Shown here in pieces: positions 4,893 to 64,000 of a stretch of DNA of 64,000 nucleotides (within the stretch, counting starts at the first letter, position 1; each line of letters starts with the position of its first letter). The notes under the pieces are model-generated. The model worked only from the letters and a program-made list of their open reading frames with translations, had not been told where the DNA came from and ran no database searches. The stretch is taken from the NCBI GenBank assembly GCA_016187025.1, contig JACPKM010000001.1:448055-512054 (forward strand), given 5' to 3'. The stretch is from Candidatus Daviesbacteria bacterium. Lineage in GTDB: Bacteria > Patescibacteriota > Microgenomatia > Daviesbacterales > UBA10151. A program made the position numbers and the translations under genes.

Positions 4893-6077
4893 ATGATAAA
4901 AAAACTCGCTGTAGTTCTCCCTACTTTTAACGAAAAGGAAAATCTTCAAAATACTATCACCGAAATATTGGCACAAGCCAAAAATTTAGCTGATTGGGAT
5001 ATTCATATAATTGTTTCTGATAGTCACTCTACAGATAAAACTGGTGAGGTGGCAAAAAAGTTAGCTGAAGAAAATCCAAAGATCCATTTTATAGAGGTGG
5101 AAAGAGGTTTGGGAGTAGGGCTTATTAAGGGTCATCAGTATGCGCTTAAAAAGATTCATCCTGATGTGATGGCTCAGCTTGATGCTGATGGTCAGGTAGA
5201 AGCTGATGTACTAGTTAGGTTAGTGCAGGGGATAGAGCAAGGGTATGATTTTGTGATGGGCTCAAGGCTTATTAAAGGTGGTAGTAACCAACTATCTTTT
5301 TCAAGAAGGATTTTTACTTTAGGGTCTTCCTTGATGTGCAGGTTTCTCATGGGACCAATGGATGTCAAAGAGTTTACAAACTCTGCCCGGGCTTTTACCC
5401 CGGAGATTTTTAAGAAAATTGATTTAAATAGTCTACCCTGGCGCGAAAAGACTTTTATTGTCCAACCAGCATTTGTAAATGAGATGGTTAAAGCAGGTGC
5501 GAAGTATAAAGAAGTGCCACTGGTTTTTAAAAATAGGCTAGAAGGATATTCAAAAAATAAAGTTTTTAACTATACCTATGATGTAATCACTTATGTTCTT
5601 GATGCCAGGTTTAAAAAATGGGGTTTGAGTTTCCCACTTTTTTATGTTGCCCGAAGAGCAAAAACTGTGGTGAAGTTTGGTATGGTTGGTTTTGTGGGTA
5701 CGGTAGTTGATTTTATATTTTATAAATTCTTTATTAATTTGGGTGGTTTTCCGCCTGCTACCTCAAAAGGAATCTCAACAGAAGTTGCAATTTTAAACAA
5801 CTTTTTACTGAATAACTATTGGACATTTAAATACCGAAAGACCAAAACCAGCTTTGCTCATAAACTAGGTTTGTTTAACTTAGTTAGTTTGGGTGGATTA
5901 GCTATAAGCGTAATGATTGTAAAGTTTTTCGATTTAGTTTACGGGGAGGGTAGTGTTAATATATTAGGTTTAAATGTTGCCTATAATAACTTTTATTTTT
6001 TTGCAACAATTCCTCCTGTGATGGTATGGAATTTTGTGGTTAATCATTTGGTAACCTGGAGAAACCAAAACGGGTAA
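4893..6077 (+). CDS. Polyprenyl-phosphate glycosyltransferase (Dpm1/GtrB-like GT2) fused to a C-terminal GtrA-like 4-TM domain
   Basis: The N-terminal GT2 signature is LAVVLPTFNEKENL...VSDSHSTDKT with a D-A-D-type motif (QLDADGQ). The C-terminal roughly 120 aa are hydrophobic in GtrA style (FGMVGFVGTVVDFIFYKFFINL...). Confidence 0.7.
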   Translation: MIKKLAVVLPTFNEKENLQNTITEILAQAKNLADWDIHIIVSDSHSTDKTGEVAKKLAEENPKIHFIEVERGLGVGLIKGHQYALKKIHPDVMAQLDADGQVEADVLVRLVQGIEQGYDFVMGSRLIKGGSNQLSFSRRIFTLGSSLMCRFLMGPMDVKEFTNSARAFTPEIFKKIDLNSLPWREKTFIVQPAFVNEMVKAGAKYKEVPLVFKNRLEGYSKNKVFNYTYDVITYVLDARFKKWGLSFPLFYVARRAKTVVKFGMVGFVGTVVDFIFYKFFINLGGFPPATSKGISTEVAILNNFLLNNYWTFKYRKTKTSFAHKLGLFNLVSLGGLAISVMIVKFFDLVYGEGSVNILGLNVAYNNFYFFATIPPVMVWNFVVNHLVTWRNQNG

Positions 6078-6083
6078 AACAGC

Positions 6084-7253
6084 TCAGTTGTATAACTCTA
6101 AGTTGGGAATTGGGGCTGTGTTTTCAATCAAAAAGTTTTGAGAATATAGATATATTGCAAATAACACGATTATAATCACCAACCTAAACTCCTTACTGGT
6201 TAATACTTTTTCAAAAGCAATCAAGGCAAAAGGGAATATTGGAAGGGTATACCTACTAATATCCCTGTGAGCAACAAAGGATGAGGCTATAATATAAGTT
6301 AAAACAAAAGCTGCCAAAGGATATAGTTTTTTTTTGATTAGATAAAATCCTGCCAAAAAGCCAAGTATAAAAATATATATTCCATCCTCAAGCCAAATAT
6401 CCCCCACCCAATATTGGTTTTTGTTAAATAAAGAAAAAGGAGGAAAAGTTAAATGAATATTGTCCCCACTATGAAAGTAAGCAAAAAAGTCCTGATAAGA
6501 GATAGAGTACCAATAAAAAATTACAAGTAGTGTAAAAGGAATAAATATTAAAGGAAGATAGCTTAAAAAATACTTTTTAAATTGCATAAAAAAGTTATCT
6601 TTACTTGTTTTAACCAGCTTCCACAATATATAAAAAGATAAAGCTATAAACAGTAATATACCCGGAGGGCGGGTAAACTGAGCAAGAGATCCAAAACCAG
6701 CAGCAAGCAAAATAAATTTCATCTTTTGAGCATTTTCAAATTTTAGGAAAAAATAAATAGCCATTAATACCAAAAATATAAACATTGGCTCTGCTGACCC
6801 AACTGATCTGACAATGACCCATCTGGCTGGAATAAACAAAAAAACAATTGAAAGAGCTAAAGGATGCCCAGTTAGTTTAAAGTTTCTTACCAAGAAATAA
6901 AATGCTACAACTGAAGAAATTGTAAACAATAAGGAGATAAAGATCATGGATTTTAAAAATCCCAAAAATGGCGCCAGGGCCAAGATAGCAAGCGAGTATC
7001 CAGGAAAGTGGGCTGCATAATAGTTAGCTGGTAATGATTGCCCAACTGCAGCGATTAAATTTGGATAATAGAAGGTTTTGGCAATCACTACATATTCTAA
7101 TCCATCGTAGTTTCTGTAAATATTTGCAATACCATTGCTAAAATCCAAGCCCAGAAAGCCAGAAAGTGATAAAAAGTGGGGAAGCCAAATCAGTAAAGTT
7201 GAGAAAACTGTAGTAGTAACCAGCAGTATAAGATCTTTAAAGCTTTTACCCAT
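6084..7253 (-). CDS. Polytopic membrane protein, GT-C-like (family with an 'N[YF]DG.EY..IA' motif; paralog of 45674..46831)
   Basis: The protein is 389 aa with more than 10 predicted TM helices. The motif RNYDGLEYVVIA matches ANFDGEHYLSIA in ORF 45674. It is one of only three minus-strand genes. Confidence 0.45.
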   Translation of the reverse strand: MGKSFKDLILLVTTTVFSTLLIWLPHFLSLSGFLGLDFSNGIANIYRNYDGLEYVVIAKTFYYPNLIAAVGQSLPANYYAAHFPGYSLAILALAPFLGFLKSMIFISLLFTISSVVAFYFLVRNFKLTGHPLALSIVFLFIPARWVIVRSVGSAEPMFIFLVLMAIYFFLKFENAQKMKFILLAAGFGSLAQFTRPPGILLFIALSFYILWKLVKTSKDNFFMQFKKYFLSYLPLIFIPFTLLVIFYWYSISYQDFFAYFHSGDNIHLTFPPFSLFNKNQYWVGDIWLEDGIYIFILGFLAGFYLIKKKLYPLAAFVLTYIIASSFVAHRDISRYTLPIFPFALIAFEKVLTSKEFRLVIIIVLFAIYLYSQNFLIENTAPIPNLELYN

Positions 7254-7302
7254 ATTAAAATGATAGCAGAAATAAATAGGGGTATGCTACACTTTGCTTT
7301 AT

Positions 7303-9492
7303 ATGGCAGTTAATCATTTGTCTGTTTTTTTCCCTGCTTATAATGAGGAAAAAAATATCTTATCCACAGTTACAAAAGCAGTTGAGGTTTTAAAGAAGCT
7401 AAATTTAAAAGATTTTGAGGTTATAGTGGTGGACGATGGGTCCAAAGATAACACTGCCCAGGTGGTTTATGAATTATCTAAAAAAGATAAAAGAATAAGG
7501 CTTATTGCCCATCAGACAAACAAAGGTTATGGCCATGCTTTAAAAACAGGTTTTTCTCAAGCAAGGTTTGAATGGGTAGCCTTTTCAGATTCTGATGGTC
7601 AGTTTGATTTTTCTGATATCACCAAGCTTTTAGAAGAATCTGATTCAGCAGATTTTGTTTTAGGTTACAGGATAAAAAGGGCAGACCCTTTTTTAAGAAA
7701 ATTATTTACCTTTGGCTGGAAAACGATAGCAGGAGTACTTTTTGGTCTAAAAGTCATAGACTATTCGTGTGGTTTTAAATTAATCAAAAAACAAGCTTTT
7801 GAGTCTTGTTTACCTCTTGAGTCTGAGGAAAAAGTTACACAAATAGAGCTTTTGGTCAAAGCGATGAAAAAAGGCTACCATTTTGCAGAAGTTGGAGTAA
7901 ACCATTATTCACGAAAATTTGGTAATCCAACAGGCGCTAATATTAAGGTAGTTTTAAAAAGCTTACTTGATATCCTAAAGCTTTGGTGGAATTTGGAAGA
8001 CAAGAAACCGCTCTTTCTTACTCTTTTGGCAATCTTGCTGCTTGCTGCTTTTTTACGCTTTTACAGACTGAATGAATATATGACCTTTTTGGGGGATGAA
8101 GGAAGAGATATGTTGATTATGAAAAAGATTCTGGTTGAGCTCGATTTGCCCTTAATCGGTCCGTCTACTTCGGTTGGGAATATTTATCTGGGGCCACTTT
8201 ATTACTACATGATGGCAATCCCCTCTTTTTTATTCTGGATGAATCCTACTGCTTCAGCAGGAATGAATGCACTGATCGGGGTTTTGACGGTTTACCTTAT
8301 TTATTATTTGGCAAAAATTTGGTTTGGAAGAATAAGTGCACTTACTGTAGCCTTTTTATATGCAATTAGTCCGATTGCAATAATTTACTCCCGCTCCTCA
8401 TGGAATCCAAACCCAGCTCCACTTTTTACCTTGCTTGGTATTCTTGGTTTTTTTAATGCACATACAACAAGAAATTTTAAATGGTTAATACTCACCGGGG
8501 TTTCATTTGCAGCAGCAGCTCAAATGCATTATCTTGCTTTGATCTTAATTCCTATTGCAGGAGTCATTTGGGCAACAGAGGCACTAAACAGAAAATCTTC
8601 AAAAAAAAGCTTTTGGTTAGGAACAATTCTTGGAATAATTTCCTATTTGGCTTTAATGACTCCCCTGGTTGTATTTGATCTGAAACATAACTTTTTAAAT
8701 TTCAGAGCAATGAAAGAGCTTTTTGTAGTAAGTGATGCCATAAAGGCGGAGTCAGCTGTAAACTTTGGTAAGTTTTTTGATTTAGTAACCCAAAAGCTTG
8801 TTAATCGCTACATAGTTGCAGGAAACGAGACATTAACTTTTGTCCTGCTTTTTATGATTTTAGTTCCTATTATTTGGATGTTTGTTAAAGCTTTGAAACA
8901 AAAATCCCTAGATTGGCCAAACTTTATTCTAGGGGTGTGGTTGATAGTGGGGCTAATTGGTTTAACCTTTTATCAAAAATCAATTTATGATCATTATTTA
9001 GGTTTTATAAGCCCGGCAGCATACCTTCTGGTTGCATCATTTATCAGTATGTATTTAGTCAAATTTAAAAATGCGAACAAACTAGTCAAGTCCGTTCCTT
9101 TAATTGTTCTAATCATAATGCTGGCTTTGGTAAATTTTCAAAAAAGTCCTTTAAAAGATGTTCCCAATAACCAGCTTAAAAGAACTCAAGAAATTGCAAA
9201 ATATATTATAAAGCAGTCTGAAAACAGACCTTTCAATTTTGCCCTTTTAGCAGAAAGAAATTATGATTCAGCGTATCAGTTTTATTTGTGGATTTATGGA
9301 CACAGACCCAAACAAGTCCCCTTTGATATTACAGATCAGTTGTTTGTTGTGTGTGAGGATTCGGTTTGTGATCCGGTATATAGCCCGAAATACGAGATAG
9401 CAGGTTATGGTTGGTCAAAAGTGGACGAGGTAAAAGAGGTTAGCGGAGTAAAGGTTTATAAGCTTAGCCCTAATCCTAGCGGAAAACCTTAA
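7303..9492 (+). CDS. Bifunctional protein: N-terminal Dpm1-like GT2 domain fused to a C-terminal GT39/83 (PMT/ArnT-like) GT-C membrane domain. The tracked ORF starts at TTG 7294; ATG 7303 is a likely start.
   Basis: The GT2 motifs are VFFPAYNEEKN...VVDDGSKDNT and FSDSDGQ. After about 230 aa there are more than 10 TM helices with a loop-1 motif FLGDEGRD (the DE motif of GT39/83). Confidence 0.65.
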   Translation: MAVNHLSVFFPAYNEEKNILSTVTKAVEVLKKLNLKDFEVIVVDDGSKDNTAQVVYELSKKDKRIRLIAHQTNKGYGHALKTGFSQARFEWVAFSDSDGQFDFSDITKLLEESDSADFVLGYRIKRADPFLRKLFTFGWKTIAGVLFGLKVIDYSCGFKLIKKQAFESCLPLESEEKVTQIELLVKAMKKGYHFAEVGVNHYSRKFGNPTGANIKVVLKSLLDILKLWWNLEDKKPLFLTLLAILLLAAFLRFYRLNEYMTFLGDEGRDMLIMKKILVELDLPLIGPSTSVGNIYLGPLYYYMMAIPSFLFWMNPTASAGMNALIGVLTVYLIYYLAKIWFGRISALTVAFLYAISPIAIIYSRSSWNPNPAPLFTLLGILGFFNAHTTRNFKWLILTGVSFAAAAQMHYLALILIPIAGVIWATEALNRKSSKKSFWLGTILGIISYLALMTPLVVFDLKHNFLNFRAMKELFVVSDAIKAESAVNFGKFFDLVTQKLVNRYIVAGNETLTFVLLFMILVPIIWMFVKALKQKSLDWPNFILGVWLIVGLIGLTFYQKSIYDHYLGFISPAAYLLVASFISMYLVKFKNANKLVKSVPLIVLIIMLALVNFQKSPLKDVPNNQLKRTQEIAKYIIKQSENRPFNFALLAERNYDSAYQFYLWIYGHRPKQVPFDITDQLFVVCEDSVCDPVYSPKYEIAGYGWSKVDEVKEVSGVKVYKLSPNPSGKP

Positions 9493-9540: not shown

Positions 9541-9559
9541 ACTTGTACAATAATTTAGT

Positions 9560-10303
9560 ATGGCAAATCCCAAACTTTCAATAATTTTTCCCTCTTATAA
9601 TGAAGAAAAAAATATCCGCAATGGAATTTTAGAAACTGTAGAAAATTACTTAAAAATGGTAGATTATCCATTCGAGGCGCTTTTTGTAGATGATGGTTCC
9701 AAGGATCAAACCGCTACCCTATTAAAAGAATTTGTAAAAAATAATAAAAATTACCGCTTGATTGAAAATAGCCATGGAGGGAAAGCTATAACTGTAATTA
9801 CCGGTATGTTAGAAGCCAAGGGGGAAGTGGCACTCTTTTCTGATATGGATCAGGCTACTCCTTTAAAAGAGATAGAAAAGTTTTTTCCAAGATTTGACGA
9901 AGGGTATGATATTGTGATTGGATCGAGGCATGGTAGAAAAGGCGCGCCTTTTATAAGAAAACTATCTGCCTGGGGTTTTTCAGTTTTGAGATTAATTATT
10001 TTGGGATTACCGTTTAAAGATACCCAATGTGGATTTAAAGCATTCAACAAATCATCCATTGAAAAACTTTTCCCAAAAATAAAACATGAATGGGGAGTAT
10101 TGCATACAAAAGGTGGGGCAGTGAATGCTGGTTTTGATGTGGAGCTACTATATCTTGCTAAAAAATATGGATTTAAGATTGCGGAGGTAGAGGTGGAATG
10201 GAATTATGTTGACACAGAGCGAGTGCAGGTTATCAAAGATGCCGCAGCTGCAATTTATGATATGCTAAGAATTAGAATAAACGATTTTTCTGGTAAATAT
10301 TAA
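9560..10303 (+). CDS. GT2 glycosyltransferase, Dpm1/polyprenyl-phosphate-sugar synthase-like
   Basis: The motifs are LSIIFPSYNEEKN...FVDDGSKDQT and FSDMDQA. The protein is 247 aa and soluble. Confidence 0.75.
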   Translation: MANPKLSIIFPSYNEEKNIRNGILETVENYLKMVDYPFEALFVDDGSKDQTATLLKEFVKNNKNYRLIENSHGGKAITVITGMLEAKGEVALFSDMDQATPLKEIEKFFPRFDEGYDIVIGSRHGRKGAPFIRKLSAWGFSVLRLIILGLPFKDTQCGFKAFNKSSIEKLFPKIKHEWGVLHTKGGAVNAGFDVELLYLAKKYGFKIAEVEVEWNYVDTERVQVIKDAAAAIYDMLRIRINDFSGKY

Positions 10304-10425: not shown

Positions 10426-11922
10426 GTGAAGTTGGTTTTCAAATACAAGACTGAAATCTTTGTTTTAGCAATACTTATTATCCTATATTTTGCCTTACGT
10501 TTGCCTAATTTAACTCTACAACCTATATTTGCGGATGAGGCAATCTATATCCGCTGGGCCCAGGTAATGAAATCAGAGCCTACTTTAAGGTTTGTCTCTC
10601 TTTCTGATGGGAAAACCCCATTTTTTATGTGGATGATGGTGCCGATGTTTAAAATCTTTGATGACCCACTTTTTGCCGGAAGATTCCTATCAGTTATTGC
10701 TGGACTCGGTACTCTCTTGGGAGTCTTTTTCCTGACCAGGAAAGTGTTTGGTAAACAAGCCGGTTACTGGTCGTCTCTAATATATGTTGTTACTCCATAT
10801 ACAGTGTTTTTTGACAGGATGGCTTTGGTTGATTCTATGCTTGCAGCATTTACTATTTGGTCTGTGTATTTTGCAATATGGCTTCTTCAATCGCAGCGAC
10901 TAGACTTGGCGATGATTCTGGGGTATTTTCTTGGAGGAGGGCTGCTTGTCAAAACTCCGGGAATGTTTAATCTTCTTGTTCTTCCTGTTAGCATCCTCGG
11001 GTTTAAATTTCAAAAGTCTTCAGGTAGTTTAGTAAAACTTTTGGTCTTTTGGAGTATTTCCTTAATTATTGGATTGGCAATTTATAATATTCTAAGGCTT
11101 GGCCCGGGGTTTGAACAGCTTTCTGCTAGAAACCAAGATTATGTTTTTTCTCCTAGTGAGCTTGTCGGAAGGCCGCTTGATCCATTCATACCACACTTAA
11201 GAGATCTCGCTGATTGGTACCCAAAACTATTAACCTGGTCTGGACTTACTTTCATATTTATTGGACTTTTTAAGTCACTAGTATCCAAGAATCGTTTAGG
11301 TTGGGTAGTGGTGGCTTGGGCCTTGGTACCGTTAATGATTCAACTGGCGTTTCTGAAAACTTTTACTGCAAGATATTTACTTTCATCAATTCCGCTGCTG
11401 ATAACTATAGGGGGTTTTGGTTTTGTTTATTTGAGTCAAAAGCTCAAACTATCATCGCTTTTTTCAATAGCTTTAGGTTTAATATTAATTCTGACTCAGA
11501 GTCTATACTTTGATTTAACCTTAATCAGTGATCCAGCTAAGGCTCCACTTCCAAGAGCAGAAAGAAGAGGCTATTTAGAAGACTGGACTGCAGGATATGG
11601 CCTCAAAGATATAGCACAATTTTTAGATGAAAAAAGTAAAGAAGATAAAGTGGTTGTTGGTACAGAAGGATTTTTTGGAACTTTGCCTGATGGACTATAT
11701 ATTTACTTGGACAAATCAGAGGTTGTCGTAATAGGGGGTAAATCTGCAATTTCAGAACAAATCAGGCAAACTGCAAAAGATAACTTGACTTATTTTGTTG
11801 GTAATAAAAAAAGAATTGAAGGTAACTTAAAAGATGTCGAGCTGGTGAGAGAATATCTAAAAGCAAAACCTTTGGATAATTCCCCACAGGATGCAATACA
11901 GCTTTATAAGGTAAATCCATAG
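10426..11922 (+). CDS. GT39/GT83-family (PMT/ArnT-like) GT-C membrane glycosyltransferase. GTG start.
   Basis: The protein is 498 aa with more than 10 TM helices. The loop-1 motif is IFADEAIYIRWA (DE motif). Confidence 0.65.
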   Translation: MKLVFKYKTEIFVLAILIILYFALRLPNLTLQPIFADEAIYIRWAQVMKSEPTLRFVSLSDGKTPFFMWMMVPMFKIFDDPLFAGRFLSVIAGLGTLLGVFFLTRKVFGKQAGYWSSLIYVVTPYTVFFDRMALVDSMLAAFTIWSVYFAIWLLQSQRLDLAMILGYFLGGGLLVKTPGMFNLLVLPVSILGFKFQKSSGSLVKLLVFWSISLIIGLAIYNILRLGPGFEQLSARNQDYVFSPSELVGRPLDPFIPHLRDLADWYPKLLTWSGLTFIFIGLFKSLVSKNRLGWVVVAWALVPLMIQLAFLKTFTARYLLSSIPLLITIGGFGFVYLSQKLKLSSLFSIALGLILILTQSLYFDLTLISDPAKAPLPRAERRGYLEDWTAGYGLKDIAQFLDEKSKEDKVVVGTEGFFGTLPDGLYIYLDKSEVVVIGGKSAISEQIRQTAKDNLTYFVGNKKRIEGNLKDVELVREYLKAKPLDNSPQDAIQLYKVNP

Positions 11923-51841: not shown

Positions 51842-51854
51842 GTTTTGTTTTTCT

Positions 51855-52606: not shown

Positions 52607-55102
52607 GTGTCAATAATAAAATATATTTTAGTAACTGGCTCTGGTGGATTGATTGGTTCTGAAGCAGTCAACTTTTTTTGCAAGAATGACTACCAGGTAG
52701 TTGGGATCGACAATAATATGCGGGCATATTATTTTGGAAATGAAGGAAGTACGCATGAAAGTATTGAGAAGCATCAGAAAATCTATAAAAATTACAAACA
52801 TTTTAATATTGATATCCGAGAGAAAGAAGCGATAGAAGAAATTTTTAGAAAGTATAAATTTGATTTAATCATTCATACTGCCGCTCAACCTTCTCATGAT
52901 TGGGCTGCTAAAGAACCGTTAACGGATTTTAGCGTAAATGCCAATGGGACTCTAATATTATTAGAGAATTTTAGAAAATACTCATCAGAAGGAGTGTTTA
53001 TATTTACCTCTACTAATAAGGTTTATGGAGATAATCCTAATTTCTTGCCACTTGTAGAGAACAAAACAAGATTTGAGATAGATTCTAAACATAAGTATAA
53101 GAATGGAATAACAGAGGATATGCCGTTGGATAATACTACCCATAGCCTTTTTGGGGTTTCTAAAGCAGCAGCCGATTTGATGGTACAAGAGTATGGTAGA
53201 TATTTTAATTTAAAAACAGGTATCTTTAGGGGCGGGTGTTTAACAGGTTCGGGTCACGCGGGAGTACAGCAACATGGATTCTTATCGTACCTGGTTAAAT
53301 GTATTGTGACCGGCAGGAAATATACAATTTTTGGATACAAGGGTAAGCAGGTGAGAGATAATATTCACGCGCACGATTTAATTAACGCCTTTTATCACTT
53401 TTACCAAAAACCCCATATAGGGGAAGTTTACAATATTGGGGGGTCAAGGTTTGCCAATATTTCGATGCTAGAGGCAATAAAAAAAATTGAAGATATTTCA
53501 GATAGGAAATCAAATATTGAGTACATTGACCAAAATAGAATTGGAGATCACATTTGGTATGTATCTTGTATTGATAAGTTCAAAAACAGTTATCCCGACT
53601 GGAAGTATGAGTACGATATTGATGCTACTATAGAAGACATTTGCAGGAATAGTTACTTTGCTAAAAAAGTGTTCTCATTCTCGGTAGCTAAAAATTTAGA
53701 CTACTGGAGAGAAAAAAATTGGTATTACCATAACTTGTTGAGACAAATATTTAAAGAGGCTATCCCTGAGGGTTCAAAGGTATTACAAGTAGGTTACGGA
53801 TTGGGTGATATATTAGCATCGTTATTTCCTAAAAAAGGTGTAAGTATTGATGTTGACGACGATGTAGTTACGGTTTCAAAACGCAGATATCCCTACATCA
53901 AGTTTTTAAAAGCAGATCCAGAAAAGATTGGCCTAAAGAATAGGTTTGATTATGCGATTTTTCCAAATTCTGTCGATCACTTTACAGATATTCAACTTGT
54001 TTTGGAGAGAGTAAGTAGTGTTCTAAACAATAAGGGAAAAATTGTTATTGCTGGAATTAATCCAAGGTGGGAGCAAATATTTTATATATTAGAAAAACTC
54101 AATTTAAAAAGAAATGAACCTCCGCGAAATTGGTTGAGAATAGAGAATTTGAAAAACTTAGTAACTGTTTCTGGATATGAAGTAACAGATTATGGTTTCA
54201 GGATTTTAGTTCCAATGCATATCCCTGTTATAAGTAGGGTGATTAACAGGTTGGTAAAAAATGTAAAGTTCTTATCGCGTTTTTGCGTTGAACAATACGT
54301 CGTAGGCGAAAAGAAAAAAATTGTTATAGATAAAAAATTGACAACATCAATTATTATTCCCCATTTCAATCAATACGAAGATTTAAAAAAATGCTTACAA
54401 GAGCTTCCCAAAATTGGGAAAAAAACAGAGGTTGTATTGGTGGATTATGGTTCTGACAGTAACATTGTAGATCTGGTAAAAAGACTTATAAAAGGGTATA
54501 AAAACATAGAATTTATTGCTACTAAATGCGGGCGAAAAGAAGCGATTAAGCTAGGTTTAAACGCAGCTTCGGGAGATATATTCATAATTTATGAAGCAGA
54601 GATGGGTGTGCCAGCTACAGAACTAGTCAGCCTATACAAGTTATTGGCATCTAAACAAGCAGATTTTGTAAACGGTACTAGGCATATTTACCCCTTGAAG
54701 GGGCAACGTCTGCGTCAATTAAATATAATTGTTAACCTTCTATTTGGATGGTTTTATACTTGGTTACTAGGGCAGCAAGTAACTGATCTTTTATGTAATG
54801 TAAAAGCGTTGTGTAAAGAAGACTATGCGAAACTCAAAATAAACGGAAAAATAGATAGCAACTTTGATCTTCTTTTTGCTGCTGCAACAAATAATTTAAA
54901 AATTGTAGAATTACCAGTGCACTACCGCAAAAATTTCTCAGCTAAGTCAAATATAGAATTATTCAAACATATAGTTTTACTTGTTCAGATGGGTTTATTT
55001 GGTCTTTGGAGTATGAAGATTAAATCTTTACTTAAGGTGAGAACAAAGAAGATATCTTTACCGCGTGGAAAAAAATTAATCTTAGATCTTGTAGGGAAAT
55101 AA
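52607..55102 (+). CDS. Tri-domain fusion protein. The N-terminal extended-SDR domain is CDP-tyvelose-2-epimerase-like with Tyr->Phe at the YxxxK position. The middle domain is a class I SAM-dependent methyltransferase. The C-terminal domain is GT2 (Dpm1-like). GTG start.
   Basis: The SDR motifs are [23 protein letters not shown] and FGVSKAAAD (F where Y is expected), plus GKQVRD..H..D and NIGG. The MTase has [10 protein letters not shown] (motif I). The GT2 has [14 protein letters not shown]...[10 protein letters not shown], and YEAEM replaces the DAD motif. Confidence 0.65.
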
Positions 55103-55110: not shown

Positions 55111-56100
55111 ATGATAGTCATTACTGGAGCGAATGGTTTTGTGGGGCAAAAATTGGCACCCCTAGCTTTAAACTATTTTAAACCATCAGATATTCTATGT
55201 TTAATCCATAATGAAAATTCCCATTTGGAAAAAAGAGGTATTAAAATTTTAAAAAAGTTTGGATTAAAAACTTTAGAGGTCGATTTAGTTACAGGTAAAA
55301 ATTTAGATTTTGTTCCTAAGTCACCCGAATTTGTTATTCATTTGGCTGCGAATACCGACACTTCAAAATCTGATCACAGGGTAAACGATATTGGGACCAA
55401 AAATCTATTAGCAGTTTTATCGGGCATTGGTCCTAAAACGCATTTTATATATACTGGTACAACTGTATTGATGAGTGGAAGGGTTAAATGTCATAAACCC
55501 TTTAGTGAAAAGGATAGAGCAAATCCTACGAATGAGTATGGCAGAACTAAATTACGGGCGGAGAAGATATTACAAGAAGCTTGTCAGGAAAAGAAGTTTA
55601 GCTTAACAATAGCCAGGTTGAATACCGTCTATGGAGGAGACCCCAGAGAGCATAAGATGTTTAAAGTTTTGGAAAAAGATATAAAAAAGAGTAAATTCAC
55701 AACAAGGCTTAACTGGCCAGGTAAGACAAGCATAGTGCATGTTGATGACGTGGCAAAAGCCTTGCTTATGCTGTTAAAAAAACCGCCAAAACCAGGTCAA
55801 TCAGAGCTTGTTTTGCTATCTGCAGAATCTCCAACTTTCTCTGAAATCATTAAAGTTATGCATGAGAAGATGGGTTATAGTTATAAACCAATTAATCTCC
55901 CCGCTTTTTTTTGGAAACTCTTATCTAACAATAGAAAATTTATATTATATTTAGAAAAAATTACCCCTCCCAGCTTGTATAATCTATTTTGGAGATTAGG
56001 TTTAATTGTAGATGATGTTATATGGTGTGAAAGCATTAATGTTCCAAGGAAATTGTCAAATTGGAATCCTAAAAAAATTATAGAGGTTGAGAAATTTTAG
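55111..56100 (+). CDS. NAD(P)-dependent epimerase/dehydratase/reductase (extended SDR), generic
   Basis: The motifs are IVITGANGFVGQKL and YGRTK (YxxxK). The protein is 329 aa. It could be the 4-keto-6-deoxyhexose reductase partner of Gmd/GME, but the sequence alone does not resolve this. Confidence 0.6.
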   Translation: MIVITGANGFVGQKLAPLALNYFKPSDILCLIHNENSHLEKRGIKILKKFGLKTLEVDLVTGKNLDFVPKSPEFVIHLAANTDTSKSDHRVNDIGTKNLLAVLSGIGPKTHFIYTGTTVLMSGRVKCHKPFSEKDRANPTNEYGRTKLRAEKILQEACQEKKFSLTIARLNTVYGGDPREHKMFKVLEKDIKKSKFTTRLNWPGKTSIVHVDDVAKALLMLLKKPPKPGQSELVLLSAESPTFSEIIKVMHEKMGYSYKPINLPAFFWKLLSNNRKFILYLEKITPPSLYNLFWRLGLIVDDVIWCESINVPRKLSNWNPKKIIEVEKF

Positions 56101-56153
56101 TAGCCTCGTAAAAAGGCCTTGCGAAATAAATAACCATCCTTTATTATTGACTG

Positions 56154-56660
56154 ATGTTTAAGAAAAATGTACTCATTGCCTTCTTTTTAGCTGTTATATT
56201 GATCCTTCCAGCAATAAAGATAACTTATGCAAATAATACAGCAATAGACCTACCGAAAACGCAAATAAATCCGGGATCTTTTTATTATTCTTTCAAGAGA
56301 TTATGGGAGAAAGGAATGACAATACTTAATTTCTCTGAGGAGTCTAAAATCCCGTATTATGATTCATTAGTTGCAATTCGTTTGGCGGAACTTGACTACG
56401 TAGTTAAAAACAAAATACTCTCCGAAATCGAAACATCTTCTCAGCGCTTTGCTTATTATGCAGGCACACTAACTGGGGAGTTGACTAAATTAAATAAATC
56501 GGATAAAAATAAACAAGTGATTGGGAAATACATGAAATACAAAGTTTTCTTAGAGCAGTTAAGAGATAACTTTCCCGTAAACTCAAGTTACTGGATGTTG
56601 TTGCAACACGACATCAATTCTTTAGATAATTATATTGAGAAATTAAATAAAACTACGTAA
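56154..56660 (+). CDS. Hypothetical secreted or lipid-anchored protein (N-terminal signal peptide or TM anchor)
   Basis: The protein is 168 aa. The N-terminal hydrophobic segment is LIAFFLAVILILPAIKITYA. It has no recognisable motifs. Confidence 0.35.
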   Translation: MFKKNVLIAFFLAVILILPAIKITYANNTAIDLPKTQINPGSFYYSFKRLWEKGMTILNFSEESKIPYYDSLVAIRLAELDYVVKNKILSEIETSSQRFAYYAGTLTGELTKLNKSDKNKQVIGKYMKYKVFLEQLRDNFPVNSSYWMLLQHDINSLDNYIEKLNKTT

Positions 56661-56669
56661 ACTTCTAAT

Positions 56670-57938
56670 ATGAAAAATTCATTGTCTAAAAACTCACATA
56701 GAATAAAGGAGGTAAATAAATTAAAAGACTGTAGAGTTTGTGGTGGAACCTCACTTTTAACTTTTTTACAGCTTGGCCCAACTCCAGCTCCTAATGGATT
56801 TTTAGATAAAATGCAATTGAATAATTCTGAAAAGTTCTATCCTCTTGATGTATGTTTTTGTGAAAGCTGTGGAATGGTTCAACTGGCTCATGTTGTATCT
56901 CCGAAAGTAATGTTTAGTAACTACGTTTATATACCCTCAACTTCAGTAACAATGCAAGGACATTTTAATAAGTTATCGATAGATGCTATTAAAAGGACAA
57001 ATGCCGAAAGAGGGAATTTAGTCGTAGACATTGGTAGCAACGACGGAACCTTACTTAAGTTTTTTAAGGAATCAGAAATGCAGATCCTAGGAGTTGATCC
57101 AGCAGTGAATTTAGCAGATAAGGCGAACAAAGAAGAGATTGAAACCATTTGTGACTTATTTACCAGAGATTTAGCAAAAAGAATTAGAAAAGAGAAGGGA
57201 GAAGCAAAAATTATTACCGCTACTAACGTTTTCGCGCACGCTCCGGATTTACATGATTTTGTGGAAGGGGTGAAGGCTTTATTGTCTGATGATGGATTAT
57301 TCATAATTGAGTTTCCTTATTTGATTGATCTTCTTGAAAAGGTAGAGTTCGATACTATTTACCAAGAGCATTTGTCCTATATTGCTTTAACCCCTCTTAA
57401 TAAACTCTTGGAGAAGCATGGTATGTACTTGATAGATGCTAAGAGAATACCTGTACATGGCGGATCGATTAGGGTATACGTTAGTAAAGTTAACAAAGCC
57501 TCTTCCCAAAAGTTTAAATCATTAATAAAGCTTGAGAAAAAAAAGGGAATCTTAAATAGAGAAACCTATCTTAAATTTAGAAAAAGAGTTGATAATATAA
57601 GACATGATCTCGTCCAGCTTCTCTGGAGTCTAAGGCTTAAAGATAAGAAAATTGTTGGATATGGAGCGTCAGCAAAGGGAAATGTTACTCTTAATTACTG
57701 TCGGATTGGACCTGAAACACTTGACTACATTGTTGATTCGATCTCTTATAAGCAAGGTAAATTTACTCCAGGGATGCATATTCAAATACATCCTGAGAAA
57801 AAATTATTGGAAGACCAACCTGATTATACTCTTATACTGGCCTGGAACTTTGCCGACGAGATAATTAACAAACAAGAAGAATATAGGAAAAAGGGTGGAA
57901 AATTTATCTTGATGCTCCCTGAAGTTAGGATAGTCTAA
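56670..57938 (+). CDS. NDP-hexose C-methyltransferase (TylCIII-like: zinc-ribbon, SAM-MTase and C-terminal C-methyltransferase domains)
   Basis: The N-terminal zinc ribbon is CRVCGG...CESCGMVQL. The SAM-binding motif is VVDIGSNDGTLLKFF. The protein is about 420 aa. This architecture is typical of sugar 3-C-methyltransferases. Confidence 0.6.
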   Translation: MKNSLSKNSHRIKEVNKLKDCRVCGGTSLLTFLQLGPTPAPNGFLDKMQLNNSEKFYPLDVCFCESCGMVQLAHVVSPKVMFSNYVYIPSTSVTMQGHFNKLSIDAIKRTNAERGNLVVDIGSNDGTLLKFFKESEMQILGVDPAVNLADKANKEEIETICDLFTRDLAKRIRKEKGEAKIITATNVFAHAPDLHDFVEGVKALLSDDGLFIIEFPYLIDLLEKVEFDTIYQEHLSYIALTPLNKLLEKHGMYLIDAKRIPVHGGSIRVYVSKVNKASSQKFKSLIKLEKKKGILNRETYLKFRKRVDNIRHDLVQLLWSLRLKDKKIVGYGASAKGNVTLNYCRIGPETLDYIVDSISYKQGKFTPGMHIQIHPEKKLLEDQPDYTLILAWNFADEIINKQEEYRKKGGKFILMLPEVRIV

Positions 57939-58714
57939 GGATTTACCAGTTTCTCTATTCTCTTTTGAAGATTTTTTTCGGGATCCTTAAAGATATTTAC
58001 CTGAAATCCAAGGTGCGATAAGAAATAAAGCGCTAAAACCTTAAAAGTTCCAATAGAATAAAGTATACTGTTTTTTAAACTTGCTCCCCTCTTTTTTCCC
58101 TGGTAGGAAGTTTCAACGGGCACCTGAGCTGTTCTTACTTTTTTATATATTGATTGGGCAATTAGTTCAAAACTGAAAAGATAGTCATTTGAGTTTTCTT
58201 CAAAATTAACCTTTTTTAACATATCTTTTGTATATACCCTAAAACCTTGATGAAAATCGTTCAGTCTCACTCCTAATACTAAACTATCAATAGAATTAAG
58301 GAGTCTTAAAGGAATTAATTTCCAGATAAACATACCATTTTTAATTGGTTGCAAAAGGCTCGTGAAGCGATTACCTAAGATGAGTTGATACCCTTCCTGA
58401 ACCTTTTTAAGAGCTGCTGGAATAGCTGAAGGGTTGTATTCCCCATCCGGATGGATATCTATTAAGATTTCCGCTCCTCTTTTTAGTGCGATTGATAGAG
58501 CTTTCTTCATATTACCACCATATCCTAGATTCACGGGATTTTTGTAGGATATAATACCTAACTTTTTTGCAAGCTCATAAGTATTATCCTTTGAAGCATC
58601 ATCTACCAAAATAATTTCATCAGCAAAATTTTTAGGAAAACTTTTGTAAAAATTCTCTAAAGTTTTTTCTGCATTATAGGCCAGAAAAAAAACAATTATT
58701 TTTGGCTTGTTCAT
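57935..58714 (-). CDS. GT2 glycosyltransferase
   Basis: The motifs are KIIVFFLAYNAEKTLENF...ILVDDASKDNT and DIHPDGEY. It is convergent with the upstream gene, with overlapping stops. Confidence 0.7.
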   Translation of the reverse strand: MNKPKIIVFFLAYNAEKTLENFYKSFPKNFADEIILVDDASKDNTYELAKKLGIISYKNPVNLGYGGNMKKALSIALKRGAEILIDIHPDGEYNPSAIPAALKKVQEGYQLILGNRFTSLLQPIKNGMFIWKLIPLRLLNSIDSLVLGVRLNDFHQGFRVYTKDMLKKVNFEENSNDYLFSFELIAQSIYKKVRTAQVPVETSYQGKKRGASLKNSILYSIGTFKVLALYFLSHLGFQVNIFKDPEKNLQKRIEKLVNP

Positions 58715-58765
58715 AACATACTATTTTCTTTTTAGTTTACATACATTATACTAATTTTTAGCTCT

Positions 58766-59794
58766 ATGGGAAATGACAAAGTTTTACATGGCCGGAAAAA
58801 AGGATTTTTGAAAGATAGCTCAATTTATCGTCCGTCTGATTTTTGGATTAAATTAAATGACATTCATCAGAAACAGTTAATGTTAGCTGGATTCAAAAAT
58901 TTTAAACGCTCAATTAATATGAAATATTTTAATTGGAGTACTTTGGGAATACTAGCTCACCAAGGACATCTAATTATTAATCAAATTAAAAGGGGTAACT
59001 GGCAGCCAATATTCAAAAGTAATTTTTTTAACTATAAAAGTAAATCTCGTTCAGCAGTATATAGGTTTAATCCTATTTCAGCCTTTATTTATAAAACCTT
59101 TGTAGCAGCTTATATGGATTATCTGCAGGGAGTGGATAAACAGAATATATTCAAAAAAATTAGTGAACCAAAAATCGGTAATCCATTCCTAATATCTTAT
59201 AGAGACAAGAAAATCTCTCAAGATTTATGTAATTCGGTTCATGAGTTTTACAGCATTACTAACCCGCTTGAGAAAACAAAGAAATTGAGAATTCTAGAAA
59301 TAGGAGCTGGTTATGGAAGGCTTGGCTATATTTTCCTAAATCAACTACGAGATTGTTCGTATTGTATAATTGATATTCCACCCGCCCTATTTGTTGCTCA
59401 AAAATATCTTACCAAAGTTTTTCCTAGGGAAAAATTTTTTCACTTCCGGTCCTTTAATTCATTTAAAAAAGTAAAAAAAGAGTTTGAGTCAGCGCGAATA
59501 AGTTTTCTTAATGCTGATCGGATAGAATTATTACCCGATAATTATTTTGATTTGGTGATTAACGTTAGTTCTTTACATGAAATGACTAGAGAGCAAATTA
59601 ATAATTATTTTAGACAGATTAATCGTATTTGTCGTGGATATTTTTACACTAAACAATGGCGAAAATCCAGAACCTCTGATAACAACTATATATCTGAAGG
59701 GGATTATCCCCGTCATGCTCGTTGGAATACAATTTTTCAGCGTCAACACCCAATACAGAAAATGTTCTTCGAAGCATTATACAAAATTCTTTAA
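58766..59794 (+). CDS. Putative sugar O-methyltransferase (class I SAM-dependent)
   Basis: The SAM motif I is LRILEIGAGYGRLGYIF. The size and context resemble the putative sugar O-MTases found in glycan loci. The start is ambiguous. Confidence 0.45.
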   Translation: MGNDKVLHGRKKGFLKDSSIYRPSDFWIKLNDIHQKQLMLAGFKNFKRSINMKYFNWSTLGILAHQGHLIINQIKRGNWQPIFKSNFFNYKSKSRSAVYRFNPISAFIYKTFVAAYMDYLQGVDKQNIFKKISEPKIGNPFLISYRDKKISQDLCNSVHEFYSITNPLEKTKKLRILEIGAGYGRLGYIFLNQLRDCSYCIIDIPPALFVAQKYLTKVFPREKFFHFRSFNSFKKVKKEFESARISFLNADRIELLPDNYFDLVINVSSLHEMTREQINNYFRQINRICRGYFYTKQWRKSRTSDNNYISEGDYPRHARWNTIFQRQHPIQKMFFEALYKIL

Positions 59795-61719: not shown

Positions 61720-61752
61720 TCAGATAATCTATCAATCTAAATAGGCTAAATA

Positions 61753-63663
61753 ATGCGAGCAAGTTTTACCAAGGCTAAGGATTCTCTTTTCAATAGTTCT
61801 AAGATACTATTTATTGCCACTAGTATTCTGATATGTATCTCACAGTTCTTACTTCTAAAAATAGTTCTTAACTTCGGGCTTTCGTCGGAAGACTGGCTAC
61901 TAGTATTTGATTACAAAACAATTGGAGGGGATAGAAGTTTCTTAGATAAGCTTTCTACTATTTTTATTACAGAAGGTATTTATTCGACAACCTTTATTTT
62001 TTACATAGGTATACTTGAAAGTTTCCTAAAAGATAATTTTTTGGCTTACCAATTGACAAATATAACCTTTAAGATACTGGCTACTCTTTCCTTATTCCCC
62101 CTTATTTTAATAGTCTTTAAAAGGAAGTTACTGGCTTTTTTAACAACTTTTCTTTATGGCATCAGTTATTCCTCAACTGGAGCATTGCAGTTTGTGGTTA
62201 AGGGTACAGATTATCTGGCAATTTTTTTTATGAATATTTGTTTAATAATGTATTATTTTTCCTTTAATACAAATAGGAATCTTTTTCTCTTGTTTACTTC
62301 TGTATTGCTGTTTTTAGCTTTTATCTTCTCTCCTATCAGAATATATCCGTTTTTATTATTTATTTTTCTCTTTGAAGTGATTTTTTGGTTCGAATCTAAA
62401 GGTTTTTTTGGTTTAATAAAAGTATTTTTTAGATTAGTTATCATATTCTCTCCTTTTATATTACTTTTAGTTTTACTCCCTAAATCTACAGGAAGTTATC
62501 TTAATGGACCATTAGTAGTATACAGTCTTTTATCTTATGGAAATTACCAGCTGTTGCTTACTCCATTTTCAGGCTTAGGCTATGCGATTTTGCCTAATGA
62601 CTACTGGTCAATATTCGGTAAATTAACCCTTGATAATTTTAAGGACTATATGTCCTTCTTAATTTCAGGACCAATAATTATTTATTCAGCTTTAACTATT
62701 TTACTTGGTTTTTTGATTTCTAAAGGTAAAGCAGCATATTGGTTTATTCTGGGAGTGATAGCCACTAATATAGTTTTTGAGATTATCTGTTACTTTTTAA
62801 TAACTAATGTAAGGGGAGGCGATGGACCTAATATAAAGGGATTTTATCATATCAGCACCTATGCCATATTTCTTGGCTTTTATGTAGTATCTGTTGCTAT
62901 ATCAAGTCTGATTCTATGGTTTAAAAACAAATTTAATATTTTACTCTTTGCTCTTTTTATCGGCCCCATTTTCTCCAGTATATTTTTGTGGGGTACATGG
63001 ATAATTATTGGTGACAATCTATCCTTCAAAGAAGGCATACACTGGTATTTAATAATACCACCAATTGGTACCAGTATATTTTTGGCTAGTTTAATGACAC
63101 TTGGTTTTGATAGGATCAAGAGAATCGTAAATCCAAACTTAAGAACGACTTTAATAACTGGTTTATTTTTAATAATAGTGCCTATCTATTTGATAAGTAG
63201 TAAAGAAATTAATACTACATTTACTAATTTACTAAATATAGGTTATGGGGCATCCGATATAAATGGTATGAAAAGTAAAATATTTAAGTACCTTATAAAC
63301 CCTGCTGATCAAAAAAATGCACTTTTTTATTTTGATGCCAGCGATGATTTAACCACGCCCCAACTTTTTTATCCTGTAACTGTCATGTCTGGCTTTGAGC
63401 AAAAAATGCATATTTATAATGGGAGAATTATCGATGGTTGTGTGGGTATTATAACCGAAAAAGCCATCCTTCAAAAATCAATAACTATGAAGTATGGAGT
63501 TAAAGGATTTAATTCTAACAGTCTATGTGTGGAAGATTCTTACGCTACCGGGATGCAACAGGTATTTTATTCCTCAGATGAATTTTACAGCTTTAAATTG
63601 AAGGATAAAAATGTAATAGATGTTAAGGAAAATGTACTTAAAGAATTAGGATTTGACAATTAA
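61753..63663 (+). CDS. GT-C-like polytopic membrane protein, tandem paralog B
   Basis: The protein is 636 aa with the same architecture and motifs as paralog A (LSSEDWLLVFDYKTIGG). Confidence 0.5.
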   Translation: MRASFTKAKDSLFNSSKILFIATSILICISQFLLLKIVLNFGLSSEDWLLVFDYKTIGGDRSFLDKLSTIFITEGIYSTTFIFYIGILESFLKDNFLAYQLTNITFKILATLSLFPLILIVFKRKLLAFLTTFLYGISYSSTGALQFVVKGTDYLAIFFMNICLIMYYFSFNTNRNLFLLFTSVLLFLAFIFSPIRIYPFLLFIFLFEVIFWFESKGFFGLIKVFFRLVIIFSPFILLLVLLPKSTGSYLNGPLVVYSLLSYGNYQLLLTPFSGLGYAILPNDYWSIFGKLTLDNFKDYMSFLISGPIIIYSALTILLGFLISKGKAAYWFILGVIATNIVFEIICYFLITNVRGGDGPNIKGFYHISTYAIFLGFYVVSVAISSLILWFKNKFNILLFALFIGPIFSSIFLWGTWIIIGDNLSFKEGIHWYLIIPPIGTSIFLASLMTLGFDRIKRIVNPNLRTTLITGLFLIIVPIYLISSKEINTTFTNLLNIGYGASDINGMKSKIFKYLINPADQKNALFYFDASDDLTTPQLFYPVTVMSGFEQKMHIYNGRIIDGCVGIITEKAILQKSITMKYGVKGFNSNSLCVEDSYATGMQQVFYSSDEFYSFKLKDKNVIDVKENVLKELGFDN

Positions 63664-64000
63664 TGAAAACACTATACAAAACTAATTTACAACTTTTTCT
63701 ACTTCTTATATTAATAATTGGGGTTTCCCAGTATTTATTTTTTGGATTAGTCTTAAACTATGGATTTACTCCCGATGATTGGGGATTACTTCTCTTCTAC
63801 AAAACTTTAGGAGATAATCCTTTATCTCAAATACCATATGTTTGGTCTGTAAAAGGAGCTTATACTACTGGGCCGATATATTTTATTGGCATTCTAAATG
63901 ATTTCTTTGGTTTAAATTACCAGGCCTATCAAATAACTAATATTGTTTTAAAAACCTTAGCTACTCTTTCCTTATTCCCCCTTATTTTAATAGTCTTTAA
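63663..64000 (+). CDS. GT-C-like polytopic membrane protein, tandem paralog C. It is 3'-truncated by the window edge and is not in the ORF track.
   Basis: The ATG at 63663 overlaps the previous stop (TAATG). The translation MKTLYKTNLQLFLLLILIIGVSQYLFFGLVLNYGFTPDDWGLLLFYKTLGDNPLSQ... parallels paralogs A and B. The last 41 or more nt are identical to 62080-62120. Confidence 0.5.
   Translation, partial: MKTLYKTNLQLFLLLILIIGVSQYLFFGLVLNYGFTPDDWGLLLFYKTLGDNPLSQIPYVWSVKGAYTTGPIYFIGILNDFFGLNYQAYQITNIVLKTLATLSLFPLILIVF

Follow-up and report, generated by a model that had tools for sequence, protein, structure and literature searches.

Glycosyltransferases (GTs) of the GT-C fold, which act on the outer face of the membrane with lipid-linked donors, follow a published logic in the three-component systems GtrA/GtrB/Gtr*, CsbB/GtcA/YfhO and ArnC/ArnEF/ArnT (PMC11127046): a GT2 enzyme synthesises the polyprenyl-phosphate (polyprenyl-P) sugar, a flippase acts next to it and a GT-C enzyme works on the outer face. 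Here we compare with them a locus of a Candidatus Daviesbacteria bacterium (assembly GCA_016187025.1, contig JACPKM010000001.1, positions 448,055 to 512,054 of the forward strand; this whole stretch of 64,000 nucleotides is called the window), in which the interval 4893-64000 holds 21 GT-Cs and seven donor synthases in about 60 kb. Like the three-component systems, the locus contains GT2 domains of the Dpm1/ArnC/GtrB type, a GtrA domain and GT-Cs of the PMT_2 type. In those systems, however, the components occur in a ratio of 1:1:1, whereas the locus combines seven synthases with one GtrA domain and 21 GT-Cs; each of their synthases has a dedicated small flippase of the GtrA/GtcA or SMR type, while the locus has a single GtrA domain and Wzx flippases of another type; and their components are not fused as they are here (GT2-GtrA, GT2-GT-C, and short-chain dehydrogenase/reductase (SDR)-methyltransferase-GT2). 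Three-component systems add one side-chain sugar, whereas the glycan itself seems to be a product of the locus described here.

Two further systems resemble the locus. In the assembly of mycobacterial lipomannan (LM), lipoarabinomannan (LAM) and arabinogalactan (PimE, MptA-C, EmbA-C, AftA-D, Ppm1), many GT-Cs extend or branch a glycan outside the cell from polyprenyl-P-sugars; GT87 occurs in the locus as well, and AftA, AftB, AftD and PimE are structural neighbours of the families modelled here. Mycobacterial GT-C genes, however, are spread over a 4.4-Mb genome, while the 21 GT-Cs described here lie within 60 kb of a genome of the candidate phyla radiation (CPR); moreover, the locus has neither carbohydrate-binding domains of the Emb type nor a decaprenyl-phosphoarabinose pathway, and the sugars it is equipped for are rhamnose, 6-deoxyhexoses and methyl sugars. 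Archaeal N-glycosylation (Haloferax AglB, AglJ/AglD, AglR, AglS) and PglB share with the locus the cytoplasmic GTs, a Wzx-like flippase, a GT-C with the fold of an oligosaccharyltransferase (OST), Dol-P-hexose synthases and, for the addition of a late sugar, a PMT_2-like GT-C. We consider it likely that the window carries the core envelope-glycan locus of the Daviesbacteria cell and that this locus serves glycosylation at the membrane's outer face by means of lipid carriers.

GT-C families and their conservation

A hydropathy scan identified 23 polytopic membrane proteins among the 48 open reading frames (ORFs) of at least 150 residues in the window; two are Wzx flippases and the other 21 are GT-C-like. 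The tally of 20 complete GT-C candidates, one cut by the end of the window and one truncated remnant (36410-37333) agrees with the approximately 20 GT-C-like proteins that an earlier note on this DNA, drawn from its letters alone, had proposed; together the GT-C genes occupy 34,260 nt (53.5% of the window). BLASTP sorts the GT-C-like ORFs into six families, A to F, with eight, four, two, two, three and two genes, respectively, which are the same groups that the note had distinguished by short motifs, and these motifs are found where it had placed them. Hydropathy predicts eight to 14 helices in 20 of the 21 complete candidate ORFs (the truncated 36410 included) and five in 39027. The Pfam gathering score for a GT-C family (PMT_2, PMT, PTPS_related, GT87 or PIG-U) is reached by 11 ORFs; links beyond Pfam were sought by paralogy, by profile-profile comparison with hhalign and by AlphaFold2 (AF2) models compared with the PDB in Foldseek. 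Nine polytopic ORFs have no significant Pfam match of their own, which would leave room for transporters, permeases or other proteins that are not glycosyltransferases at all, and an NCBIfam scan of the unassigned membrane ORFs gave sub-threshold hints only. Every one of the nine, however, is tied to GT-C by paralogy, profile comparison, the Pfam matches of its orthologs or a predicted structure, and transporter folds appear at a Foldseek probability of at most 0.09 only; we regard the transporter reading as scarcely credible. All these lines of evidence agree with the GT-C assignment made in the note, and membership of the polytopic ORFs in the GT-C fold superfamily is supported by sequence and predicted structure.

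Family C is the most informative of the six with regard to fold (features lie on the plus strand unless the minus strand is given). One of its genes, 27188..29143 (minus strand), carries HDGAWH at residue 130 and, according to the predicted structure, an OST-like C-terminal globular domain. The other, 20133..23705, encodes a protein of 1190 residues in which a signal anchor and a DUF3863-like domain of about 475 residues (span 20133-21632) precede the family C module with HDGVWH at residue 627; the two proteins are 31% identical over 700 residues. The N-terminal domain of 20133 matches DUF3863 weakly (PDB 3lm3, uncharacterised), and its ortholog in the related locus L011 carries PF12979. This domain would lie outside the cell and could bind the acceptor or process the glycan. 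For families C and E, AF2 models were built from homolog alignments and show 11-14 long helices. The family C model (pLDDT 88.7, pTM 0.91) combines a GT-C membrane domain with an OST-type C-terminal globular domain. Foldseek returned 18 significant matches in the PDB (E 5e-9 to 1.5e-6), all of them DPY19 or STT3/PglB/AglB, followed by AftA at 3e-3 and a negligible transporter probability (at most 0.09). On the predicted structure, the fold of family C is thus nearest to the oligosaccharyltransferases (STT3/AglB/PglB) and DPY19. The likeness to AglB and STT3 includes the modelled C-terminal domain, and the best single match (E 5e-9) is to the DPY19 C-mannosyltransferases, GT-Cs with a peptide acceptor and Dol-P-Man as donor; DPY19 enzymes, however, are eukaryotic, and they are no more than about 10% identical to family C, with which no common motif was demonstrated.

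At the sequence level, family C stands apart from these enzymes. It has no Pfam model, no match to STT3 even at E values up to 10, no detectable sequence similarity to STT3, AglB or PglB, and neither WWDYG nor DxD is conserved. Searches of the PDB with the family C profile, a larger family C profile and a profile of the C-terminal domain returned no OST, and sequence and profile searches of the PDB with families B and E returned nothing relevant; it is therefore through predicted structures and profile-profile comparison that families B, C and E are linked to solved GT-Cs. The hhalign comparison of family C with family A was not significant (11.9%). In place of WWDYG, which is absent from the C-terminal domain, the orthologs conserve P-x-I-W-x-W-[FS]-D-[TS]-x-Y, and 20133 reads LFAYDTSAY at this position, without tryptophans; the W-x-W-[FS]-D-[TS] core resembles WWDYG in flavour and place, yet it is not WWD. 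A further difference from STT3, AglB and PglB consists in three extra helices ahead of the TM1 equivalent (TM, transmembrane helix), and helix parity in the model would place the N-terminus outside the cell, which fits the signal anchor and the domain of about 475 residues preceding the module in 20133. The 705 homologs of family C are for the most part unnamed hypothetical proteins; the best 120 of them are 48-63% identical, an exact match aside, and the few with a source name come mostly from Daviesbacteria or from a metagenome-assembled genome (MAG) of the Patescibacteria/Microgenomates group. Next to 27188 lies a conserved protein of 216 residues (26525..27175) with one TM at each end and no family match, which adjoins the family C gene also in two related loci (50% identity in L010, 34% in L011) and may be a partner subunit of family C.

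Three tandem genes with a [DE][DE]W motif make up family E: 59722-61719, 61753-63663 and 63663-64000, the last cut by the end of the window and assigned by 45% identity over 112 residues (E 2e-26). Family E has no Pfam model and reaches 94.3% in hhalign against the PMT_2 family A; its model (pLDDT 90.3, pTM 0.90) matches only GT-C enzymes in the PDB. Among 5.8 billion proteins, only 84 homologs were found, all confined to Daviesbacteria-like genomes. Logan contigs with the neighbour of the last complete gene of the window stop at the array of paralogs.

Family A (PMT_2/PMT) is the largest, and seven of its eight genes score 28-59 bits for PMT_2 (cut-off 26.1 bits). It comprises 7294..9492, in which a Dpm1-like GT2 domain (residues 1-230, predicted cytoplasmic; Glycos_transf_2 110.7 bits) and a PMT_2 GT-C (46.5 bits, with DE 10 residues after its first TM) form one polypeptide; 10426..11922 (PMT_2 59.1 bits, PMT 35.6 bits; DE at residue 37); 23706..25298 (PMT_2 28 bits, and paralogy); 34921..36405 (PMT_2 48.5 bits, PMT 31.3 bits); and the four tandem genes 37326-38978, 39027-40679, 40676-42205 and 42198-43790, three of which score 36-59 bits for PMT_2, while 37326 belongs to the family by paralogy (E 3e-42). 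The DE directly after TM1 is invariant in the family alignment. By sequence, the best solved relatives are AglB (7e-5) and ArnT (2.4e-4), over about 160 residues only, and a Pfam scan of the family A genes found no MIR domain; as judged by sequence, the family appears to lack close similarity to a characterised enzyme, be it ArnT or a Pmt with MIR domains. The truncated family A member 36410..37333 (307 residues, nine TM helices) aligns to residues 98-387 of a 542-residue PMT_2 protein, its full-length syntenic counterpart in a relative (L010:1178-2806), and matches the family A profile at 92% in hhalign. Without TM1, the DE loop and the C-terminal domain, it is probably non-catalytic, be it a paralog in decay or a membrane subunit without a catalytic role. 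Its interpretation as a novel small membrane protein was rejected, since the alignment shows a GT-C fragment.

The remaining three families are smaller. Family B consists of four tandem genes (11937-13646, 13627-15297, 15269-16945 and 16875-18650) assigned by paralogy, PTPS_related and motifs: they are 30-40% identical to one another, two of them score 53 and 39 bits for PTPS_related, all four have ..DD after TM1 and an invariant QFPWRF, and hhalign links the family to the PMT_2 family A with 96.4% probability. Family D (GT87/PIG-U-like) contains 25302..26528 (HPD at residue 30; PIG-U 33 bits, above cut-off; GT87 24.2 bits, just under the cut-off of 25 bits) and 33705..34934 (HPD at residue 24; GT87 29.6 bits). 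In family F, the PIG-V/GT76-like gene 45674..46831 (NFDGEHY at residue 61) is assigned through its orthologs (55-63% identity), most of which carry PF04188 (Mannosyl_trans2) and several of which NCBI names 'mannosyltransferase family protein'; the family F proteins of the window do not themselves reach the Pfam score for PF04188. The second member, 6084..7253 (minus strand; NYDGLEY at residue 48; PMT_2 18 bits, below threshold), is PIG-V-like and belongs to a small family (298 representatives) that hhalign links to the family of 45674 with 99.4% and E 2e-21, the N.DG being in register.

Each family thus has a motif of its own: DE in A, DD in B, HDGxWH in C, HPD in D, [DE][DE]W in E and N[YF]DG in F. 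Every one of the 20 complete genes has its motif 1-30 residues downstream of the relevant TM helix, and in 18 of them this helix follows a K/R-bearing segment; the AF2 models of C and E show the motif where the first juxtamembrane helix after the TM1 equivalent begins. GT-C-A enzymes have their catalytic Asp at the same position, for example D58 of PimE (PMC12041525). By the positive-inside rule and by homology, the motifs are predicted to face outwards in the first loop after the TM1 equivalent, consistent with the extracytoplasmic location that the earlier note had presumed. Its counts of motif genes hold for the eight DE-motif PMT/ArnT-like genes (7294, 10426, 23706, 34921, 37326, 39027, 40676 and 42198), for the two HDGxWH genes (the C-terminal half of 20133, and 27188 on the minus strand), for the two HPD genes (25302 and 33705) and for the three [DE][DE]W genes (59722, 61753, and 63663 running off the window). 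Two of the patterns had been drawn too tightly: of the four genes with HHDD/QFPWRFL, all four PTPS_related genes have QFPWRF, but HHDD is exact in two only and reads QDD and SDD in the others, and of the two genes with N[YF]DG.EY, 6084 fits exactly (NYDGLEY) but 45674 reads NFDGEHY. The further statement that much of the locus sits in families with no characterised member applies to families B, C and E.

Comparison with relatives separates two parts of the locus. A central cassette has the same gene order in L010 (family C ortholog 62% identical) and in the Microgenomates-group MAG L011 (51%): Wzx, the DUF3863-family C gene, PMT_2, GT87-like, the 216-residue protein, family C on the opposite strand, GT2, GT2, GT2, GT4 and GT2. 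More PMT_2 genes follow downstream in both, and a second GT87-like gene in the closer relative only; about half of the genes in these relatives' 22-kb loci are of GT-C types. Together with most genes of families A, B, C and D, the cassette is conserved one-to-one and in order, at 45-75% identity. The distal block, comprising a C-methyltransferase, a GT2, an O-methyltransferase and family E, is syntenic in three Daviesbacteria-like MAGs (L005-L007), and the number of family E copies in relatives' loci ranges from 3 to 7 in about 22 kb. The locus is thus a conserved lineage-wide core with a fast-duplicating periphery, and it looks like a lineage-wide envelope locus of the Microgenomates. The combination of a conserved core cassette with a variable family E describes a mixed core/periphery locus, unlike a mobile island; a mobile or horizontally acquired island was rejected on account of the flat GC content (30-37%), the absence of tRNA and integrase marks and the synteny of the cassette in relatives that are only 51% identical.

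It should also be noted that L005 (CAZYPW010000009.1, 7056-21653) has seven family E paralogs packed into 15 kb, on both strands; their identity to the copies of the window ranges from 74% down to 20%, and this wide range points to rapid expansion of the family. L005 and L006 are titled 'uncultured Gammaproteobacteria bacterium', although their genes share 45-77% identity and synteny with those of Daviesbacteria, and the two records are probably mislabelled.

Donor synthases, flippases, sugar supply and layout of the window

The Dpm1/GtrB-like GT2 enzymes, six according to the earlier note, are of the type it named, but they number seven: 4893, the N-terminus of 7294, 9560, 48047, 51080, 57935 (minus strand) and the C-terminus of 52607, which cluster together. 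Their joint profile aligns with the dolichol-phosphate-mannose synthase DPMS (5mlz, 1e-34) over positions 6-216 and with ArnC (2e-28) over positions 5-228 of 248, and with GtrB (5ekp, 2e-24) over positions 6-140, while the alignments to almost all other GT2 structures are confined to about the first 100-140 positions. In 4893..6077, the GT2 domain (Glycos_transf_2 81 bits) is followed by a GtrA-type four-helix membrane domain (GtrA_DPMS_TM 65 bits), and the protein would thus be a polyprenyl-P-sugar synthase joined to a putative flippase. The Dpm1/ArnC-like GT2 at 9560..10303, a member of the seven-GT2 profile also identified by Pfam, has no TM helix and is a candidate polyprenyl-P-sugar synthase. 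Further downstream, a Dpm1-like GT2 (48047-48859), a GT4 (48918-50045), a GDP-fucose-synthase-like SDR (50078-51055) and another Dpm1-like GT2 (51080-51841) follow each other, and 52607..55102 encodes a fusion of 831 residues in which Pfam identifies an SDR dehydratase/epimerase, an S-adenosylmethionine (SAM)-dependent methyltransferase and a Dpm1/AglJ/ArnC-like GT2. The last of these (residues 580-793) matches the NCBIfam models of AglJ and ArnC and is 39% identical to the GT2 of 51080; it has EAE where DAD is usual. The fusion suggests that a modified (methylated, deoxy) sugar is channelled straight onto polyprenyl phosphate. Between 51080 and this fusion, two adjacent short ORFs (51783-52178 and 52227-52583; 131 and 118 residues) carry HD-domain-like motifs (HDLGR) and look like one gene split in two; the two-ORF layout recurs in the independent Logan assembly L008, with 131 residues and then an ORF called at 98 residues.

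Two Wzx-type flippases are encoded, as the earlier note had stated, at 18652..20136 (Polysacc_synt_3 172.9 bits; position kept in L010 and L011) and at 46819..48117 (Polysacc_synt 85 bits). Eight soluble GTs of the cytoplasmic type (five GT2 and three GT4) were found in the window by Pfam. Five of them form the block of the cassette (GT2 29286-30182, GT2 30179-31030, GT2 31034-31840, GT4 31837-32913 and GT2 32879-33700), which has no TM helices save a single predicted hydrophobic segment in 29286, keeps its order in L010 and L011 and presumably builds a lipid-linked oligosaccharide; a GT2 (43780-44562) and a GT4 (44623-45696) lie apart from it.

Sugar-nucleotide genes (247..4842) are situated directly upstream of the interval 4893-64000: the long form of rmlA (247-1326; rmlA_long 370.9 bits, NCBIfam cut-off 320), rmlB (1295-2350; dTDP-glucose dehydratase 443 bits, cut-off 365), and rmlC (2351-2902), rmlD (2826-3782) and a GDP-mannose 4,6-dehydratase-like gene (gmd, 3799-4842), each of these three named after its best NCBIfam match, which is below cut-off. 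A tailoring block (55111..59794) that is syntenic in L005-L007 precedes family E and was annotated by Pfam and NCBIfam: an SDR reductase for sugar tailoring (55111-56100), a DUF5667 membrane-anchored protein (56154-56660), an NDP-hexose C-methyltransferase (56670-57938), the Dpm1-like GT2 57935-58714 (minus strand) and a NanM-like sugar O-methyltransferase (58766-59794). In each of the three related loci, too, the DUF5667 gene separates the sugar reductase gene from that of the C-methyltransferase. With rmlA-D, the Gmd-like and Fcl-like proteins, the SDRs, the C-methyltransferase and the NanM-like O-methyltransferase, the pathways listed in the earlier note (dTDP-rhamnose, GDP-mannose derivatives, C- and O-methylated sugars) are all represented, and the locus is predicted to be capable of making dTDP-L-rhamnose, derivatives of GDP-4-keto-6-deoxymannose and C- and O-methylated sugars.

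Proteins of the window match the NCBI entries HYW42_02710, HYW42_02785, HYW42_02855 and HYW42_02860 exactly, and these belong to a 512-kb contig of a Candidatus Daviesbacteria MAG (Patescibacteria group, Microgenomates group), in line with the CPR/Microgenomates affiliation that the earlier note had presumed. The window is compactly organised: 98.5% of it is taken up by the ORF set, no gap between genes exceeds 142 bp, 47 of the 50 tabulated ORFs lie on the plus strand and the GC content stays flat. No tRNA genes were found by a tRNA scan of the window. The note's description of the locus as apparently co-transcribed is partly supported by this mostly same-strand layout but fails as to one transcript, which the three genes on the minus strand (6084, 27188 and 57935) make impossible. 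A promoter scan of the window gave counts not above those in shuffled sequence; the best intergenic sigma-70-like matches (10-11 of 12 positions, plus strand), at 203-231, 4858-4886 and 9523-9551, are possible promoters upstream of rmlA, the GT2-GtrA gene and the GT2 at 9560, respectively.

Proposed mechanism and competing readings

We propose that the locus multiplies the three-component logic to the scale of mycobacterial LM, LAM and arabinogalactan assembly. Cytoplasmic GTs would build a basal carrier-linked glycan, of the type of an oligosaccharide linked to polyprenyl diphosphate (polyprenyl-PP), and Wzx would flip it to the outer face, where the core cassette would pass it to an acceptor or elongate it outside the cell. 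The seven Dpm1-like synthases would supply a pool of different polyprenyl-P-sugars, and the GT-C arrays (four family B, five family A and at least three family E genes) would transfer, elongate and decorate on the outer face, with one sugar or linkage per paralog. The product would be a complex surface glycoconjugate: a polysaccharide of the wall or with a lipid anchor, a glycoprotein, or the two together. Polyprenyl-P or polyprenyl-PP sugars may serve the GT-Cs as donors, as the context of seven synthases in the same locus suggests.

Several observations weigh against our interpretation of the window as a core envelope-glycan locus. Functions are assigned throughout by homology or predicted fold. 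Seven polyprenyl-P-sugar synthases face a sole GtrA domain (4893), and the ORF coverage leaves no space in the window for further small flippase ORFs. A Pfam scan of the window detected neither a priming phosphoglycosyltransferase nor a Wzy polymerase, an LCP-type ligase or an ABC exporter, and the pathway is therefore not self-contained in the window. Terminator-like sites in the window are no commoner than in shuffled sequence. With 36410 truncated and the copy number of family E varying between relatives, not all paralogs need be active or share one pathway.

What the locus makes can be read in more than one way. The leading sub-hypothesis, which we hold tentatively and at somewhat less than even chances, is a wall polysaccharide or lipoglycan, that is, a rhamnose-rich wall polymer or a lipid-anchored glycan that the GT-Cs elongate and branch outside the cell, comparable to mycobacterial LM, LAM and arabinogalactan or to the way in which streptococcal and lactococcal rhamnose polysaccharides are decorated with side chains. 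The rmlABCD genes directly upstream, the presence of the GT87 (PimE/Mpt-like) and PIG-V-like mannosyltransferase families, and the tandem paralogs, which look linkage-specific and recall the Emb/Aft/Mpt sets, speak for it; yet Pfam detects no LCP ligase, polymerase, or ABC or MATE polymer exporter in the window, carbohydrate-binding modules like those of Emb and AftD are missing, and family C is structurally nearer to OSTs than to Aft or Emb enzymes. This last point leads to a different and rather doubtful possibility, protein glycosylation resembling the archaeal Agl pathway, in which the five GTs would make an oligosaccharide, Wzx would flip it, family C would transfer it, or a first sugar, to S-layer proteins, pilins or other secreted proteins, and PMT_2-type GT-Cs would later add polyprenyl-P sugars, as AglS, AglD and AglR do in Haloferax. 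The exclusive DPY19, STT3, PglB and AglB matches of family C (the top 18 in Foldseek), the pairing of its gene with Wzx and the five-GT block each time (L010, L011), and AglJ, Agl23 and AglF among the weak NCBIfam matches point in this direction, whereas a sequence-level OST link (Pfam STT3 or PDB profile searches) is missing, W-x-W-[FS]-D-[TS] replaces WWDYG in the orthologs (with no tryptophans in 20133), the first outer loop holds HDGxWH instead of DxD, and no candidate acceptor protein was identified. Its boldest version, in which family C is an unrecognised bacterial counterpart of the OST/DPY19 branch, the cassette is a CPR-wide Agl-like system for glycosylating S-layer or pilus proteins and the arrays build large glycans outside the cell, seems unlikely to us; if true, these glycans would be unusually large and rich in methyl- and deoxy-sugars.

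A reading that concerns the paralogs rather than the product holds that many of them are alternative, interchangeable enzymes of decoration, by which the surface is diversified (serotype-like variation, evasion of phage or host), instead of sequential steps. Gtr-type GT-Cs are the classic seroconversion enzymes (PMC11127046), the number and arrangement of family E genes differ among close relatives (three to seven copies in some 22 kb), family E is restricted to Daviesbacteria with only 84 homologs, and the truncated family A copy 36410 stands where a relative has a full-length gene. Against these stands the one-to-one conservation, in order and at 45-75% identity, of the cassette and most A, B, C and D genes, which favours fixed, non-redundant roles; in addition, neither invertible promoters nor repeats or genes of mobile elements came to notice. 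We judge such a variable repertoire to be possible, though on the unlikely side.

Implications for Daviesbacteria and the GT-C families

While lipid-linked donors and transfer by GT-Cs on the outside face are known, the density of the locus, its fusions and two GT-C families without a Pfam model (C and E) are new. Most proteins of the locus are named hypothetical in database records, and we found no description of such loci in the searched literature on GT-C, PMT, OST or mannosyltransferase in CPR, Patescibacteria, Microgenomates or Daviesbacteria. Family C, widespread and with an OST-like predicted fold, bears on the evolution of OST-type enzymes, and family E is specific to Daviesbacteria and rapidly duplicating. 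Families C, E and PTPS_related are candidates for new CAZy families and for glycoengineering with new donor and linkage specificities, and the GT2-GT-C, GT2-GtrA and dehydratase-methyltransferase-GT2 fusions represent natural experiments on the coupling of donor synthesis, flipping and transfer.

Genomes of CPR/Patescibacteria typically comprise about 1 Mb, these bacteria are thought to live attached to other cells and, to our knowledge, their surfaces are almost unstudied. With one 60-kb locus that is about half GT-C and has a core conserved across the Microgenomates, the surface glycan is a major investment of the cell. It is probably essential, and likely mediates host attachment, phage interaction and the integrity of the envelope; the locus implies a very elaborate, so far unstudied surface-sugar coat in Daviesbacteria.

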